DNA of 64,000 bases from a virus (IMGVR_UViG_3300036770_002122:1-64000); one strand, 5' to 3'. Counted from the stretch's first letter, positions 21,795 to 29,675 are shown. The notes: generated by a model not told the origin, from the sequence alone. Numbers and translations are program-made.

Positions 21795-22359
21795 AGATGA
21801 AAAACTAGACAAGCAAGACTTTGACTTGTTTGAAGCACTTAATGCCATTGATCGTAAAGATTATGAATATTATGACAGGCTATCAGAGGAACAAAAACAA
21901 AAATTCAATCCCTACATGCTTGTTATTTTTATGAGCAGTGTTTCTGGACGTATGGAATTGCAGCAGTACCACTTGTTAAGCACCAATGAATTCAGTAACA
22001 AGTATATGTTTGATGAGCGTATTCAAGATCATCCTAAACTACAATGGATGATGCTATGCGCTAGCGGGTTGGGAAAAGGTAAACAATTTCATAATTACAT
22101 ACCTTCAATTAAAGATAATGTAGCAGCATTAAAAGAAAAAGCAACAATCAAAGATACTAAAGAGTATTATAAAAAAATCTATAAAAATGCTAGCGATCAG
22201 GATATTACTGAAATTGCAAAAATTTACGTTGAATTACAAAACAGAAAATACACCTTAGCAAAAAAGTTTCCTGAATTAAAGTTAGTAGATATTGATGCAT
22301 TAAGCCAAATAGTAACAGATGATGATATACTTAAATATGAAGCAGAGTGCGGTAACTAA
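21772..22359 (+). CDS. Clamp-loader small subunit-like protein (T4 gp62-like)
   Basis: FEALNAIDRKD and KFNPYML pattern, helical, in the replication cluster. Confidence 0.55.
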   Translation: MAKAKTPEDEKLDKQDFDLFEALNAIDRKDYEYYDRLSEEQKQKFNPYMLVIFMSSVSGRMELQQYHLLSTNEFSNKYMFDERIQDHPKLQWMMLCASGLGKGKQFHNYIPSIKDNVAALKEKATIKDTKEYYKKIYKNASDQDITEIAKIYVELQNRKYTLAKKFPELKLVDIDALSQIVTDDDILKYEAECGN

Positions 22360-23026
22360 ACACCTGTGTGAATTTTGCGGCAAAAGTTTTATTAAAGAAA
22401 CTACCATTGCCAAACATCTTTGTGAAACTAAACGCAGATGGCAAAGTCGAGACCATCATGGTTCTAGAATTGGATATACTACTTGGATTCAATTTTATAA
22501 TAAACATTCTAATAAAAAGAAAAAAGAGTATTCTGATTTTATAACTTCAGCATATTATACAGCATTTGTAAAATTTGGTAATTATTGTATTGATGCACAG
22601 GTATTGAATGTACCCAGATATGTAGATTGGTTATTAAAGAATCAAATAAGCGTTGATACATGGAATAAAGATAGTAACTATACTAAATTCATAATTGATT
22701 ATTTAAAGACTGAAGATCCCTTTGATGCGATAGCACGTAGTATAGAAACTACGGTAGTATTAGCACAAGAGGATAAAATACAAACTAAAGATGTGTTACG
22801 TTATGGTAATCGTAATAAAATTTGTTATGAAGTTACAAAGGGCAAAATAAGTCCATGGATGCTATATCATAGTAAGAGTGGACTAGAGTTTATTGAAAGC
22901 CTGAATGTAACGCAAGAAAAAATGATATTTGATTATATTAATCCAGAGCAATGGGCTATTAAATTTACAAAATCAAAAAATTTAATTCCAGAAATAAAGG
23001 AGTTGTTACATGCCGGTGGTTATTGA
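22337..23026 (+). CDS. Hypothetical protein with N-terminal Zn finger
   Basis: CEFCGKSF...HLC; start uncertain (ORF open from 22319). Confidence 0.65.
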   Translation: MKQSAVTKHLCEFCGKSFIKETTIAKHLCETKRRWQSRDHHGSRIGYTTWIQFYNKHSNKKKKEYSDFITSAYYTAFVKFGNYCIDAQVLNVPRYVDWLLKNQISVDTWNKDSNYTKFIIDYLKTEDPFDAIARSIETTVVLAQEDKIQTKDVLRYGNRNKICYEVTKGKISPWMLYHSKSGLEFIESLNVTQEKMIFDYINPEQWAIKFTKSKNLIPEIKELLHAGGY

Positions 23027-23216
23027 TGATAATAAATATCGCGTAAGAATACATTGGCAAAATTATAATCAAAACTGGAATGAGATTTGCGCAGTTGCAG
23101 TAGAGTACTTTGGATTACCCGGTGAAAAATTTAGTACAAATATTTGCATGGATTATATGGATTTTTGTTTTAAGGAAGAAACTGATGCTATTTGGTTTAG
23201 TCTAAAAGTAGAATGA
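23010..23216 (+). CDS. Small hypothetical protein (recurrent small family)
   Basis: AGGAG RBS; C-terminal FKEETDAIWFSLK. Confidence 0.6.
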   Translation: MPVVIDDNKYRVRIHWQNYNQNWNEICAVAVEYFGLPGEKFSTNICMDYMDFCFKEETDAIWFSLKVE

Positions 23217-23923
23217 AAGAAATAAAAGACAAATTAGAATTAGGAGAAGGATATGTAATTCTTCCTGGGTTTATACCCTCATTGTTAATTGCTGATTATA
23301 AGTCAATACTTAAAGACTTACATCCTGTACGTGCCAGCAGCAGTAAGAAAGTATATGCTGAACGTGACGATATCAAGAACCTAGAAGATATCAGTGTATG
23401 GTGGAGTCAAACTGTACACGATTATAAACCTTTTCAATCAATCAAAAAACTTGTCGATCCACTAATACAAAACAATTTTACTAACCTTACATTCTATGCT
23501 AGCGATACTGTTACTATCAATCCCGGCAGTCAATGGTTAAGCCCTCACGTAGATACTCCCCATAGATTTAATAAATGGAATTTTGATAAACGACTATTAG
23601 GTATTCAATGTATTATCACACTAGAAGATGTGAACAAAAATAACGCTGCTACAGGTTTAGTTCCATTTAGTCAAAAACGTGATTTTGAAATTAGTAAATG
23701 CTATGAAGGTGCATATGACAGATGGTTTACAGAAAATTGTAAACAACATGATATGCCTAAAGGAACATTACTCATCTACAATTGCAGAGTGTTACACAGC
23801 AGTATGCCTAACAATACAAACAACGCACGTTCAGCACTATTGCTCAATTATCTACATAAAAATATTATTGATGAAGTTAGTAAAGTAGATAACGTCTGGA
23901 GTAGCAATGGCAAACATCCCTAA
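23213..23923 (+). CDS. PhyH-family Fe(II)/2-oxoglutarate dioxygenase
   Basis: HxD (PHVD), distal His (LHSS) and Arg (ARSAL); GTLLIYN pattern. Confidence 0.8.
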   Translation: MKEIKDKLELGEGYVILPGFIPSLLIADYKSILKDLHPVRASSSKKVYAERDDIKNLEDISVWWSQTVHDYKPFQSIKKLVDPLIQNNFTNLTFYASDTVTINPGSQWLSPHVDTPHRFNKWNFDKRLLGIQCIITLEDVNKNNAATGLVPFSQKRDFEISKCYEGAYDRWFTENCKQHDMPKGTLLIYNCRVLHSSMPNNTNNARSALLLNYLHKNIIDEVSKVDNVWSSNGKHP

Positions 23924-24182
23924 AGATTTTCAAGATTATGATGACGATGATGCTGATATTGAGAAGCGAAAGAACCGCTGGAAATATTGGACTAACTTAA
24001 AAAATCTAAAATTAGAATTTAGACAAGAAACGGGCAGCAGAGATCATAAAGAATACATGAAATGGTTAGTAAACAAATATGGGTTTAGACCAAAAGAAAA
24101 TATTGAAGGTATGCTCAGTGATGACTATGAAGTACTTGACGAAAAGAAATTTTTAGTGTATATTCTTAAATATGGCCAATGA
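23907..24182 (+). CDS. Small hypothetical protein
   Basis: GGAG RBS; C-terminal YEVLDEKKFLVYILKY. Confidence 0.65.
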   Translation: MANIPKDFQDYDDDDADIEKRKNRWKYWTNLKNLKLEFRQETGSRDHKEYMKWLVNKYGFRPKENIEGMLSDDYEVLDEKKFLVYILKYGQ

Positions 24183-24720
24183 TATCATGATTGATATGGA
24201 AACACTGGACACAAGTCCCTATTGTGTTATCCTTACTATTGGGTGCGTAAGATTTGACCCCTATGGTAGTGGCGTAGTAGAACGATTAGAGTTACGTCCC
24301 ACTATTGAAGAACAAACAGAAAAATACAATCGTGTTATCAACGATGACACACTACGCTGGTGGGGTGAACAAAGTCCAGAAGCACTTGAAGAAGCAATGA
24401 GTGATCGTGATAGAATTAGTTTTACTGACTGTTTAGAACAACTATATAAGTTTGGTTGGAATCGCAGAGCAGTATGGAGCAATGGTGCAGCGTTTGACGT
24501 TGTAGTAGCAGAGACAGCCTTTAGACAAGTATTTACTGATAAACCTAATCCTATACCTTGGCCATTCTATACTGTGCGTGATACACGCACTCTTTACGAA
24601 CTGGCCGGGGTTAAATTAAAAGACGGCGGACATGTTACTAGCCACAAAGCAGTAGATGACGCAGAACGTCAAGCCATAGTAGTACAAAAGGCATATAGTA
24701 AACTAGGTCTAACACGGTGA
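24172..24720 (+). CDS. DEDDh 3'-5' exonuclease
   Basis: ExoI IMIDMETL, ExoII WSNGAAFD, ExoIII HKAVDDA. Confidence 0.88.
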   Translation: MANDIMIDMETLDTSPYCVILTIGCVRFDPYGSGVVERLELRPTIEEQTEKYNRVINDDTLRWWGEQSPEALEEAMSDRDRISFTDCLEQLYKFGWNRRAVWSNGAAFDVVVAETAFRQVFTDKPNPIPWPFYTVRDTRTLYELAGVKLKDGGHVTSHKAVDDAERQAIVVQKAYSKLGLTR

Positions 24721-24971
24721 AAGCGATACGCAGACACGTATTACCATATCGTAATTACCGACAAATGTTAAAATGGCTTTGTGATAATATACAAGAAAAT
24801 TATTATCCAGATGGTAGCAAATATAATAGTAGTACTGTAAGTCAATTTATAGAATGGCGTAGCAAAGATCGTGAGAGTTGGGTGTTTAGAATAGTTGGAA
24901 ATCCACCTAAATGCTTAGTCGAGATTATTGACGAAGAAAAAGAAATATTATTTTTATTAGCATGGCAATGA
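24717..24971 (+). CDS. Small hypothetical protein
   Basis: GTGA overlap; C-terminal IIDEEKEILFLLAW. Confidence 0.55.
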   Translation: MKAIRRHVLPYRNYRQMLKWLCDNIQENYYPDGSKYNSSTVSQFIEWRSKDRESWVFRIVGNPPKCLVEIIDEEKEILFLLAWQ

Positions 24972-25540
24972 AGTTTAATAGTGATATTGATATTGATTTG
25001 GGAGATAGAGATAAAATATTATCTTTAATATCTCACACCAAAGCCAGTATACGTAAACAAGATATACGTAAGCATAACACTGGGATATACGTAACAGATA
25101 TTCCATACGATCCCATAAATGATATGTCATCACTTCATTACGAAGATGCTGAAAATAGGGGTTATATAAAGTTAGATTTACTTAACGTTCACGTATATAA
25201 TATGGTTCGTGATGAAAATCATTTAGTATCTTTGATGCGCGATCCAGATTGGAATAAATTAAAAGATAAAAACTTTGTTGAACAGTTAATACATTTGAGT
25301 AACCATTATAATCAAATACAAACTATGCCGGAACCTATAGATAGTATACCAAGACTAGCAATGTTTCTTGCTATTATTCGTCCCGGTAAAAAACATTTGA
25401 TAGGTAAAAGATGGAAAGAAGTAGCAGAGACGGTATGGGAAAAAGATGCTAGTGGCTATAGTTTTAAAAAATCACATAGTATAGCCTACGCACAACTAGT
25501 TGTAGTACATATGAATTTATTGGTGGAAAATGGAAATTAA
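24962..25540 (+). CDS. Miniature family-C (DnaE-like) DNA polymerase catalytic core
   Basis: DIDID, KHNTGIYV, GYIKLDLL, AIIRPG and GYSFKKSHSIAYA, all in DnaE order within about 190 aa. Confidence 0.8.
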   Translation: MAMKFNSDIDIDLGDRDKILSLISHTKASIRKQDIRKHNTGIYVTDIPYDPINDMSSLHYEDAENRGYIKLDLLNVHVYNMVRDENHLVSLMRDPDWNKLKDKNFVEQLIHLSNHYNQIQTMPEPIDSIPRLAMFLAIIRPGKKHLIGKRWKEVAETVWEKDASGYSFKKSHSIAYAQLVVVHMNLLVENGN

Positions 25541-26027
25541 ATTAGTAAAAGAAAATGATCAAGTGTTGAGAGAAGTTGCGACCCACTGGGATTTCAACTC
25601 TGATGGAGATCCTACCGAACTGATTCGTCATATGGCTAAAACAATGATGGAAAATAATGGTATAGGATTAGCCGCACCCCAAGTAGGAATATCAAAAAGA
25701 TTATTTGTTATGGGTAATGAGCAACGATTATATGCATGTATAAATCCTGAAATTATAGAGGGAACAGGTGAATATATGGACCAAGAAGGATGCTTAAGTT
25801 TTCCTGATTTGTGGTTACATGTAAAACGTTATGAGAAAGTAAAAGTAAAATATTATAATGCATTAGGTGAAGAAATTGTATCAGAGTTTGACGGAATAAT
25901 AGGTAGAGTTTTCCAACATGAAAGAGACCATTTGGACGGAGTTTGTTTTGATACTAAAGTTGGAAAGTTAAGTCTAGAAATGGCTAAAAACAGACGTAAG
26001 AAAAGATTAAGGAAATCTTTTTACTAA
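25530..26027 (+). CDS. def: Peptide deformylase
   Basis: GIGLAAPQVG, EGCLS, QHERDHLDG. Confidence 0.95.
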   Translation: MEIKLVKENDQVLREVATHWDFNSDGDPTELIRHMAKTMMENNGIGLAAPQVGISKRLFVMGNEQRLYACINPEIIEGTGEYMDQEGCLSFPDLWLHVKRYEKVKVKYYNALGEEIVSEFDGIIGRVFQHERDHLDGVCFDTKVGKLSLEMAKNRRKKRLRKSFY

Positions 26028-26390
26028 TGTAATACTTTTTCTTTTCGTCCTGCGCTTATTTAATTCGCTTAAACAGACAATTGGACCATGAAGAATAGTC
26101 AAATTCTTATTATTAAATGTTTTTAAATAGGGCTTAAAGGGAGTCCATTCTTGCTTTAAAAAGATGTTAATTGGAATTTGACGGTTACTTTCCCACCACC
26201 AAACTTCCCCCAATTCTAAAAAAAGTTCCTTGGTTTTCGTGTCTGCTATCGAACCATAGTCATATATGCTGGTACATTGGTCGTCACGGTTTTGAACTAT
26301 ACCCACATAATCTTGTCCGGCAAATGATAATATCGTTATAAAAGGATGATTATCACTTAATTTTTTAAAGAAGTCTTTAGCAATCGTCAT
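26007..26390 (-). CDS. Hypothetical protein
   Basis: 127-aa ORF; TATAAATA 7 nt upstream on the minus strand. Confidence 0.7.
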   Translation of the reverse strand: MTIAKDFFKKLSDNHPFITILSFAGQDYVGIVQNRDDQCTSIYDYGSIADTKTKELFLELGEVWWWESNRQIPINIFLKQEWTPFKPYLKTFNNKNLTILHGPIVCLSELNKRRTKRKSITLVKRFP

Positions 26391-27316: not shown

Positions 27317-28294
27317 GTGTTTGATATTCTTCAACTGATTCCAGGCAAGAAAAAAGTTACGCAGAGCGGATGGCAAAGTTTCAACGCTGTCTGTTGCCAG
27401 TACCGTGGTCATAAAGCCGATAGACGAAGCCGCGGTGGTATTAAATTTGACGGAGAAAACTGGAGTTATCATTGTTTCAATTGCGGTTTCAAATGTAATT
27501 TTACATTGGGACGCACTATCAGTAAAAATACAAGAACTTTGTTATCTTACTGTGGATTAGATAAAGATGATATAAACAAATATAGTTTAGAAAGTTTACA
27601 ACATAAAGACTTATTAGATTTTGTAAAGGTTACCCGAGAAAAGAAAAAAATTAAATTTAAAGAAATGCATCTGCCTGATGCTGAACTTATAGATGTTAAT
27701 AATCCTAAACACAAAATCTATGTTGATTACTTAACTAAAAGAAAAGTTGATATAACTAGTTATCCTTTTATGTGTACCCCAGATATGGAAGGACGACAAT
27801 CAAATCGTGTAATCATACCCTACACATATGAAAATAAAATAGTGGGACACACTAGTAGGTACTTAGATGATCGCACACCAAAATTTATCAATGAACAGCA
27901 GCAAGGATTTGTATTTGGTATTGATTTACAAAAACCAGAATATAATGTTTGTATTGTAGTAGAAGGTATATTTGACGCATTAAGCATTAATGGTTGCGCA
28001 CTTACGCATAATACTATAAGTGAGCAGCAAGCAGAAATTATAAAAAATTTGAATAAAAAGGTTATTGTAGTTCCTGACCAAGATAAAACAGGATTACAAA
28101 TATGTGATAGAGCATTAGATTTGGGTTTTTATGTCAGTATTCCTAATTGGGAAGATGATGTAAAGGATGTAAACGACGCCGTAATAAAATATGGAAAAGT
28201 CGCTACATTACTAAGTATCTTACAGTCAGCAACGAACAGTAAGATCAAAGTAGAAGTAAAGAGGAAACAACTTGATAAACGACTACAACATTGA
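27317..28294 (+). CDS. DNA primase (T4 gp61-like)
   Basis: Zn-binding region (CC...HCFNCG), TOPRIM motifs VVEGIFD and PDQD; precedes the helicase. Confidence 0.9.
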   Translation: MFDILQLIPGKKKVTQSGWQSFNAVCCQYRGHKADRRSRGGIKFDGENWSYHCFNCGFKCNFTLGRTISKNTRTLLSYCGLDKDDINKYSLESLQHKDLLDFVKVTREKKKIKFKEMHLPDAELIDVNNPKHKIYVDYLTKRKVDITSYPFMCTPDMEGRQSNRVIIPYTYENKIVGHTSRYLDDRTPKFINEQQQGFVFGIDLQKPEYNVCIVVEGIFDALSINGCALTHNTISEQQAEIIKNLNKKVIVVPDQDKTGLQICDRALDLGFYVSIPNWEDDVKDVNDAVIKYGKVATLLSILQSATNSKIKVEVKRKQLDKRLQH

Positions 28295-29675
28295 TGTACA
28301 AACGTTATTCTTGCGTATGATGGTAACAAACGCAGAGTTATACACTCGCGTTATGAATATAATGAACGCAGAGAATTTTGATAGGCGTTTGCGTCCAGTA
28401 GCAGAATTTATTACTGAGCATAGTAAAAAATATAACGTTATGCCTGATCCTATACAAATTAAGGCAACAACTGACGTAAGCATAGATAGATTAGAAGAAC
28501 TAGATGATGGACATTATGAATGGTTTTTAGAAGAATTCGAAGCATTTACTAAACGACAAGAACTTGAGAGGGCTATTCTTAAGAGTGCTGATCATCTTGA
28601 GAAGGGCGAGTATGGACCTGTAGAGAAACTGATCAAAGATGCTGTTCAGATTTCTCTACAGAAGGACATGGGTACAGATTACTTTGCTGATCCTCGTGGT
28701 CGTTTGATGGCATTGAAATCAAACAACGGACAGAACAGCACAGGCTGGCCCACACTTGATCAGAAATTGTATGGTGGATTCAATCGCGGCGAACTACAAA
28801 TCTTTGCAGGTGGTTCAGGTTCAGGTAAGAGTTTGATCATGCAGAATCTTGCAGTCAATTGGGTTCAGAATGGATTGAGCGGTGTCTACATCACACTAGA
28901 ATTGAGCGAAGGACTATGTTCGATGCGTATCGATAGTATGATGACTGATACAAGCAGCCGTGAGATTTTCAAAGATATCGATAATGTTGAGATGAAGGTC
29001 AAGATGGTATCAAAGAAGTCTGGTCAGTTGCGTATCAAGTATATGCCAGCACAAAGCAACGTCAACGATATCAGAGCATATGTCAAGGAACTACAGATTC
29101 AAACAGGTATGAAGTGTGACTTTTTGTGTATTGACTATCTTGACTTGATCATGCCGGTAAGTGCAAAGGTCAGTCCTAGCGATCTGTTCGTTAAGGACAA
29201 ATATGTGTCAGAAGAATTACGTAACTTGGCTAAAGAATTGAACGTGTTGTTTGTAACAGCAAGTCAGTTGAATCGTAGCGCAGTTGAAGAAATTGAGTTC
29301 GATCATAGTCACATTTCAGGTGGTATCAGTAAGATCAATACCGCTGATAACGTATTTGGTATCTTTACAAGCCGCAGTATGCGTGAGCGTGGATTGTATC
29401 AGATTCAGTTGATGAAAACACGCAGCAGTTCTGGTGTAGGCCAGAAGATCGAATTACAATTTAACGTAGAGACATTAAGAATAACAGATGAAGGTGAATC
29501 TGCCCCAAAACCACAACCTTCAGGAAGTCAATTATTAAGTCAAATTAAGGTTACTAGTGCTATAGGGTCGTCTACAAACACCGAAAATTCTTCTTTAGAA
29601 GAAGAAAGTAAGAATGTAAGGGCCAACGTGCAAAGCGCAAAACTACGTAGTTTATTGAATAATTTAAAGAATTAA
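28272..29675 (+). CDS. Replicative DnaB-type helicase (T4 gp41-like)
   Basis: GGSGSGKS, ITLELSE, CIDYLDL, TASQLNR, MKTRSS. Confidence 0.93.
   Translation: MINDYNIDVQTLFLRMMVTNAELYTRVMNIMNAENFDRRLRPVAEFITEHSKKYNVMPDPIQIKATTDVSIDRLEELDDGHYEWFLEEFEAFTKRQELERAILKSADHLEKGEYGPVEKLIKDAVQISLQKDMGTDYFADPRGRLMALKSNNGQNSTGWPTLDQKLYGGFNRGELQIFAGGSGSGKSLIMQNLAVNWVQNGLSGVYITLELSEGLCSMRIDSMMTDTSSREIFKDIDNVEMKVKMVSKKSGQLRIKYMPAQSNVNDIRAYVKELQIQTGMKCDFLCIDYLDLIMPVSAKVSPSDLFVKDKYVSEELRNLAKELNVLFVTASQLNRSAVEEIEFDHSHISGGISKINTADNVFGIFTSRSMRERGLYQIQLMKTRSSSGVGQKIELQFNVETLRITDEGESAPKPQPSGSQLLSQIKVTSAIGSSTNTENSSLEEESKNVRANVQSAKLRSLLNNLKN

Follow-up and report, generated by a model that had tools for sequence, protein, structure and literature searches.

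The protein encoded by ORF-B, a 192-codon gene in the window (the whole 64,000-nt stretch of viral DNA analysed here, i.e. positions 1-64000 of the 93,197-nt record IMGVR_UViG_3300036770_002122), is the C-terminal (Mg2+/template-binding) subunit of the split minimal DNA polymerase III alpha described in group 2.2 jumbo phages by Iyer, Anantharaman, Krishnan, Burroughs & Aravind 2021 (Viruses 13:63, PMC7824862; section 3.4.1 and Fig. 3b). Very probably, ORF-B and a second protein encoded on the same record, ORF-A, together form a two-subunit, heterodimeric and miniaturised C-family nucleotidyltransferase in which a single active site would be rebuilt from two chains. Support for this enzyme comes from homology, colinearity, fold, conservation, purifying selection, co-occurrence and the existence of natural fusions of the two halves. 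The identity of the family has been known from sequence since 2021, and ORF-B is a divergent member of it that brings no new principle; new here are naturally occurring fusions and where they nest in the tree, high-confidence structural models, and the adjacency of an exonuclease gene to ORF-B in an uncultured clade. The record, from an uncultured giant phage, is 27% complete according to CheckV, implying a genome of roughly 350 kb. The features discussed are listed in Table 1.

Table 1. Coordinates of the features discussed, counted from the first nucleotide of the record; residues are those of ORF-B, and "alpha" is E. coli DNA polymerase III alpha.
Feature	Position	Strand	Remarks
C2H2 protein, 235 aa, N-terminal zinc finger	22319-23026	+	phrog_11058
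PhyH-family 2OG/Fe(II) oxygenase	23213-23923	+	
Rv2179c-like DEDDh 3'-5' exonuclease	24172-24720	+	PF16473, E 8e-31
ORF-B, 192 aa	24962-25540	+	intact open ORF; belongs to phrog_11778
D8-I-D10-I-D12 (DIDID)	24983-24997	+	D8/D10 = metal-binding pair D401/D403 of alpha; D12 = D405
K70-L-D72 (KLDLL)	25169-25177	+	= K553-F-D555 of alpha; D72 = third catalytic Asp
R140-P141-G142 (RPG)	25379-25387	+	= 639-641 of alpha (FRPG 638-641)
Finger motif GYSFKKSHSIAYA = G165-YSFKKSHSIAYA-177	25454-25492	+	= G753-A765 of alpha
Peptide deformylase	25530-26027	+	
Small reverse-strand ORF	26007-26390	-	phrog_11637
Primase	27317-28294		
DnaB-type helicase	28272-29675		
ORF-A, 168 aa	68384-68890 (L001:1237-1743)	+	outside the window; phrog_11127/PF07733
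Co-chaperonin gene	69220-69576 (L001:2073-2429)		3' of ORF-A
Clamp-loader gene	69616-70389 (L001:2469-3242)		3' of ORF-A

ORF-B begins in overlap with the stop codon of an 84-aa ORF and its own stop overlaps the start of the peptide deformylase gene. An apparently intact reading frame carrying DIDID, KH.TG (here KHNTG), KLDLL, RPG and GYSFKKSHSIAYA in the correct order had been reported in a preliminary description of the window, and all five motifs are indeed present, in that order, and conserved in the family. Across 84 diverse representatives sharing 29-57% identity with ORF-B, K70, D72 and P141 are invariant, and D8, D10, D12, H38, G41, R140, K143, K169 and H172 reach at least 90% conservation; H38 and G41 belong to the KHNTG motif (K37-G41). 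These motifs exceed what chance would produce. In the finger motif, which matches bacterial DnaE with an E-value of 0.003, K170 and H172 align with K758 and H760 of E. coli alpha, whose KSH triplet occupies residues 758-760.

The relationship of ORF-B to DnaE is visible only through family profiles or predicted structure. Single-sequence searches of Pfam, NCBIfam and the PDB with ORF-B returned no match, and its C-terminal motif gave weak matches to the PHROGs of full-length phage Pol III alpha. The family profile phrog_11778 (annotated "DNA polymerase", 197 positions) matches ORF-B with an E-value of 2e-58, residues 3-189 aligning with profile positions 3-193. When a profile was built from the 84 ORF-B sequences, its PDB matches consisted of DNA polymerase III alpha chains only (E 6e-6), in a colinear alignment of profile positions 54-140 with E. 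coli alpha 538-641 and of positions 151-179 with 739-768 (GYGFNKSHSAAYA); K70-L-D72 is aligned to 'VKFDFLG' of the E. coli protein in the HMM alignment. A second profile alignment, covering E. coli residues 344-403, ends with "...MPDFD" at residue 403, and D8 and D10 are therefore equated with the catalytic D401 and D403, and D12 with D405.

The AlphaFold2 (AF2) model of ORF-B, computed from the 84-sequence alignment, is predicted with high confidence (pLDDT 95.4, pTM 0.88) and places the DIDID motif at the start of strand E9-13 and K70-L-D72 within strand E71-75. The top eleven Foldseek matches of this model in the PDB are all Pol III alpha, with E-values that are only marginal (~3e-3 and upward); a clear separation from other folds was obtained with VIA-align. 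The latter superimposes 188 of the 192 residues on Taq Pol III alpha (3E0D, chain residues 457-837) at 3.7 A with a Z score of 9.7, followed by Geobacillus PolC (3F2B, Z 9.6), M. tuberculosis DnaE1 (5LEW, Z 9.3) and E. coli alpha (5FKW, chain residues 396-780, Z 8.1), the best unrelated fold reaching Z 3.9.

Mapping on the E. coli enzyme also indicates what ORF-B is missing. Its 192 residues correspond to ~385 residues of E. coli alpha (394-780). The spacing between D12 and K70 is 58 residues, versus 148 between D405 and K553 of E. coli alpha, and that between R140 and K170 is 30 residues, versus 119 between residues 639 and 758, such that ORF-B is without ~90 residues at the position of the thumb, between the DxD and KxD strands, and another ~90 between the RPG and KSH motifs. 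The position of the thumb, like the other domain boundaries of E. coli alpha, is presumably as in Lamers et al. 2006. ORF-B terminates 15 residues past the helix carrying the KSH motif (A177 of 192) and the structural match stops at E. coli residue 780. Judging from its length and this mapping, the beta-clamp-binding motif, the OB fold and the C-terminal tau-binding region are absent, as are the thumb domain and complete fingers; the palm with its catalytic Asp triad is present. That ORF-B has neither a PHP domain nor thumb, clamp-binding or OB regions, as noted in the preliminary description, is borne out by both its length and its correspondence with E. coli 394-780.

ORF-B also lacks the triphosphate-binding motif (GRGS) that belongs to the Pol-beta-like palm. 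This motif is found in ORF-A, 42.8 kb downstream of ORF-B, whose sequence includes G134-VGRGSS-140 and ends with "...DLSIDEFLK". ORF-A matches phrog_11127 with an E-value of 1e-41 and PF07733 over positions 16-94; a search of the whole record with PF07733 yielded one more match, at 68648-68890, within ORF-A. Relative to a 1160-aa bacterial DnaE (L074:9017-12499), residues 72-167 of ORF-A align with DnaE 284-402 (E 8e-9), residue 1 of ORF-B falls at about DnaE 404, and D8 of ORF-B corresponds to D411. Transposed to the numbering of E. coli alpha, ORF-A ends at about N393 and ORF-B starts at about 394; hence the two halves meet exactly, neither overlapping nor leaving a gap or space for an intein. 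As read from these alignments, the break separates the NTP-binding motif from the first catalytic strand and lies within the active-site fold of the palm. No match to the PHP domain profile PF02811 was found on ORF-A, ORF-B or the fused form described below, and the homology of ORF-A begins at DnaE residue 284. Among the NCBIfam DnaE equivalogs, ORF-B had no match and ORF-A scored at most 35.7 bits against cut-offs of 434-1806 bits. We note that residues 1-71 of ORF-A, and residues 1-80 of the fused protein P0177, are without a DnaE counterpart by sequence and are modelled with a pLDDT of 47-70; with their beta/alpha pattern, these N-terminal ~70-80 residues of the A half could be a PHP vestige or a docking module.

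These findings bear on the initial view of ORF-B as a minimal, ~190-aa family-C polymerase, of which the C-family core stands and the stand-alone enzyme does not. That ORF-B should be self-sufficient would be in keeping with the presence of all three catalytic Asp in one protein and with its confident fold when modelled alone; it is, however, very improbable given that the triphosphate-binding motif is missing from it, is encoded separately in a gene that co-occurs with ORF-B, and that natural fusions join exactly an ORF-A-type to an ORF-B-type protein. The dnaE gene of cyanobacteria is naturally split by an intein, and the ~43 kb between the two pieces might bring to mind a similar arrangement, or else the decay of a captured bacterial dnaE of which ORF-B would be a fragment. 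The Ssp and Npu DnaE proteins likewise derive a C-family polymerase from two distant genes. Unlike them, ORF-A and ORF-B possess no intein segments: their alignment to DnaE and E. coli alpha leaves no extra residues for an IntN at the C-terminus of ORF-A or an IntC at the N-terminus of ORF-B, and the adjacent homologous positions at which one ends and the other starts provide no space for an IntN of ~100 aa and an IntC of ~35 aa, so that the halves must associate non-covalently. Decay, for its part, is at odds with dN/dS ratios of 0.05-0.16 and with thousands of homologs of the same length. Both readings were rejected on the strength of the dN/dS values, the lengths of the homologs and the abutting halves, and their probability is negligible.

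ORF-B is a real gene under strong purifying selection. Comparison with its closest relative (88% amino acid identity) gives a pS of 0.588 and a pN of 0.056, or a dN/dS of ~0.05; more distant pairs have dN/dS values of 0.07-0.16, at which distance dS is near saturation. Of the 64 homologs examined in IMG/VR, 63 have an intact reading frame and the remaining one is truncated at its contig end, which speaks against the possibility that homologs would show the decay or frameshifts of a pseudogene. An apparent in-frame stop in two loci (L024 and L026) proved to be the stop codon of the upstream gene and not a break. ORF-B belongs to a large uncultured clade, and the family is found in great abundance in metagenomes, where its clusters at 90% identity number in the thousands (4245 for ORF-B and at least 7994 for ORF-A); at 50% identity, the ORF-B family comprises 384 representatives, nearly all of 185-215 aa. 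The two halves travel together. Homologs of ORF-B are found in 96 cultured phage records and those of ORF-A in 92, with almost identical genus tallies, and the phages carrying both are all jumbo myoviruses, for example Atu_ph07, Phosso, PA5oct, RaK2, 121Q/PBECO4, GAP32 and CBB; ORF-B is 37-47% identical to the cultured members from Atu_ph07, Phosso, PA5oct, RaK2 and 121Q. Among five long IMG/VR relatives, ORF-A lies 44-52 kb from ORF-B in three, which also have a PolB, and the contigs of the other two end sooner.

Further evidence for the association of the two halves comes from three natural single-chain fusions (P0177, P0271 and P0272) found in ENA and Logan assemblies. These proteins of 375-376 aa are 78-81% identical to one another, share a common start and a common C-terminus, and consist of phrog_11127 (residues 8-180), a 9-residue linker and phrog_11778 (residues 190-374), with PF07733 spanning the junction; the linker region reads ...KEFIK-DNKEGIYNIA-DFDID. 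They are not mentioned in the passages of the 2021 description that treat the split polymerase (Iyer et al., PMC7824862). The AF2 model of P0177 has a pLDDT of 82 and a pTM of 0.79, the first ~80 residues and the linker being poorly predicted. Its top 19 Foldseek matches, down to an E-value of 6e-7, are all C-family polymerases, and VIA-align superimposes 292 residues at 3.1 A on the ternary complex of Taq Pol III alpha (3E0D) with a Z score of 20.8, followed by 5LEW (Z 20.4) and PolC (Z 19.8); the top 16 rows are all C-family, and the next fold scores Z 3.5. The fused forms are thus predicted by modelling to fold as one compact Pol III core, and the fold proposed for the ORF-A/ORF-B pair is that of this natural fused relative, 34-41% identical, rather than one obtained from ORF-A and ORF-B themselves.

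The alignment used for the fused forms (A3) combined them with the A family and 11 close B sequences, and the last nine residues of its A rows are misplaced; an earlier MAFFT alignment of the fused forms with both families (A2) was discarded because all A-family rows were misaligned onto the B half. A tree built from B-type sequences groups the three fused forms in one clade (SH-aLRT 100), within a larger clade of 12 members (97) that otherwise consists of stand-alone B proteins and is itself nested among split forms. From this nesting, in a tree with a midpoint root only, the fusion looks like a single derived event. No DNA encoding the fused forms was found in IMG/VR, and a metagenome scan for it yielded nothing beyond one stand-alone B half and two bacterial dnaE genes of the ordinary type.

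Compared to known systems, ORF-B resembles the split Pol III alpha of group 2.2 jumbo phages, as presented in that section of the 2021 paper, in its length, motifs, fold and stand-alone gene, in the encoding of the N-terminal NTP-binding half tens of kb away, and in its synteny and the additional presence of PolB in relatives; it differs from the cultured members of this group by the lineage-specific genes inserted around it (PhyH, Rv2179c-like exonuclease and peptide deformylase). With bacterial Pol III alpha (2HNH/5FKW, 3E0D, 5LEW) and PolC (3F2B), it shares a Pol-beta-like palm in which a third Asp accompanies the DxD motif, as well as the finger motifs RPG and (N/K)KSH, arranged colinearly. 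Unlike the bacterial DnaE and PolC enzymes of 1000-1200 aa, ORF-A and ORF-B total ~360 aa, lack a PHP domain (residue 72 of ORF-A being the equivalent of DnaE 284) and have their active site shared by two polypeptides.

In the mechanism that we propose, ORF-A would supply the helix-loop bearing the GRGS triphosphate-binding motif, which is the first part of the Pol-beta-like palm, and ORF-B would supply the two beta-strands carrying the three metal-binding Asp (D8, D10 and D72) together with a reduced helical finger module bearing the RPG and KKSH motifs. The break is predicted to fall in a surface loop, at the position of E. coli alpha 393/394, for which reason the two proteins should be capable of docking non-covalently, with no intein involved, into one active site. 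The reconstituted enzyme would catalyse Mg2+-dependent nucleotidyl transfer, presumably in the form of templated DNA polymerisation. As it lacks a thumb, a clamp-binding motif, an OB fold and a PHP domain, this enzyme probably works distributively or with the help of accessory factors, and processive templated synthesis with neither a thumb nor most of the fingers is doubtful.

The preliminary description had noted that T4-like phages normally use PolB, and relatives of the virus do carry this polymerase in addition to the two halves: a full-size family B polymerase is present in PAC2 (PA5oct-type), RaK2, Phosso and three further relatives (G001, G002 and G005). In G001, the closest relative (ORF-B 88% identical), the PolB gene is located ~30 kb beyond ORF-A. 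No PolB was found in the 93-kb record of the window, which does encode a primase, a DnaB helicase and an RFC clamp loader; as the position expected from G001 lies past the end of this 27% complete record, we read this result as truncation and not as absence. In PAC2 (PP408249.1, 202949-206726; L007), the Pfam match to PolB is distributed over two open frames of 825 and 379 aa, ~2.5 kb apart, which suggests that the gene is interrupted by an inserted element. The ORF-A/ORF-B enzyme is probably auxiliary to a T4-type PolB replisome, where it could serve in short primer extension, gap filling or repair; the role suggested by Iyer et al. in their treatment of the family (PMC7824862) is the synthesis of one strand or repair. 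Our search of the literature found no biochemical or genetic test of any family member.

Alternatively, the two-piece enzyme might be a repurposed nucleotidyltransferase engaged in template-independent 3'-end tailing, RNA-primer handling or the synthesis of a nucleotide product. What remains once the thumb, clamp motif and OB fold are removed is a Pol-beta-like core and a small helical module, relatives have a complete PolB with its own replisome, and weak structural echoes of MenT and Cid1-type nucleotidyltransferases were detected (Z 3.2-3.5), all of which would suit such a reading. The finger motifs specific to C-family DNA polymerases (RPG and KKSH) have nonetheless been kept, the Z score of 20.8 for the C-family match compares with 3.5 or less for other nucleotidyltransferases, and the C-terminal half was read as DNA-template-binding in the section that Iyer et al. 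devote to the split enzyme (PMC7824862). On balance, we regard repurposing as unlikely, if deserving of some weight, and retain a polymerase assembled from ORF-A and ORF-B as the preferred reading.

At ~360 residues in two chains, ORF-A and ORF-B represent by far the smallest C-family polymerase core known. If active, this core would define the minimal unit of catalysis in the bacterial replicative polymerase, would mean that a second, bacterial-type polymerase is maintained by a phage already equipped with a complete T4-type PolB replisome, and would bear on the question of whether DnaE grew by accretion from a core of this kind. As such, the family is an attractive experimental target, this instance of it being of modest interest; the most useful new item is the set of fused forms of 375-376 aa, which offer single-chain constructs for expression and structure work.

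The genes flanking ORF-B had been regarded as unrelated to it, a view that has to be revised since ORF-B is part of a conserved block of replication genes and lies two genes upstream of those encoding the primase and the DnaB-type helicase. The order UvsW, C2H2 protein, ORF-B, small reverse-strand ORF, virion protein, primase and DnaB-type helicase is common to PAC2, RaK2, Phosso and the IMG/VR relatives. Downstream of ORF-A come a small ORF and the genes of a Cpn10/GroES-like co-chaperonin and an RFC-type clamp-loader ATPase, in the same order as in PAC2, so that both halves are found within replication modules, ORF-B near the primase and helicase and ORF-A next to the clamp loader.

The preliminary description had also proposed, as one of two alternatives, that a polymerase was split over separate subunits, which agrees with our findings, and had named as candidate partners the DEDDh exonuclease and the C2H2 protein (designated 22337 there, and starting at 22319), neither of which is the missing half; that half is ORF-A. 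One may still ask whether either neighbour is an accessory subunit besides ORF-A, with the exonuclease as a proofreader. The exonuclease gene is directly upstream of ORF-B in 57 of the 64 IMG/VR relatives, down to 59% ORF-B identity, and in PAC2, RaK2 and Phosso a homolog of the C2H2 protein is encoded 0-3 genes upstream of ORF-B. Synteny extends over the whole block, however, and adjacency may reflect shared ancestry alone. No homolog of the exonuclease was found at E <= 1e-3 in PAC2, RaK2 or Phosso, all of which have both halves, and the exonuclease of RaK2 is a different one, of the RNase_T type, encoded several genes away; moreover, the PHP domain, to which epsilon binds in bacteria, is missing here. 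As for the C2H2 protein, Pfam, PHROG, NCBIfam and protein atlas searches returned no assignable function, and it appears as a conserved syntenic neighbour with no sign of being a subunit. We consider the chances of either neighbour being an accessory subunit to be rather small; the DEDDh exonuclease might be an accessory specific to its clade, or no more than a neighbour by synteny.

A more speculative extension, to which we attach a slimmer chance still, draws an analogy with the DnaE-to-PolC hand-off of Firmicutes. The Rv2179c-like exonuclease would then act as the proofreader of a three-piece "mini Pol III core" formed with ORF-A and ORF-B, a self-contained second polymerase of a large uncultured aquatic clade that would elongate primers made by the primase before passing them to the PolB replisome, and the rare A-B fusions would be snapshots of modular polymerases becoming single chains.

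Two other aspects of the neighbourhood are worth recording. The phrog_11637 ORF is directly downstream of ORF-B in 59 of the 64 relatives, occupies the same place in PAC2, RaK2 and Phosso, and is the sole opposite-strand gene of an otherwise co-directional replication block. The PhyH and peptide deformylase genes, which flank ORF-B in 33 and 37 of the 64 loci, respectively, and are not there in the cultured relatives, look like auxiliary metabolic genes.
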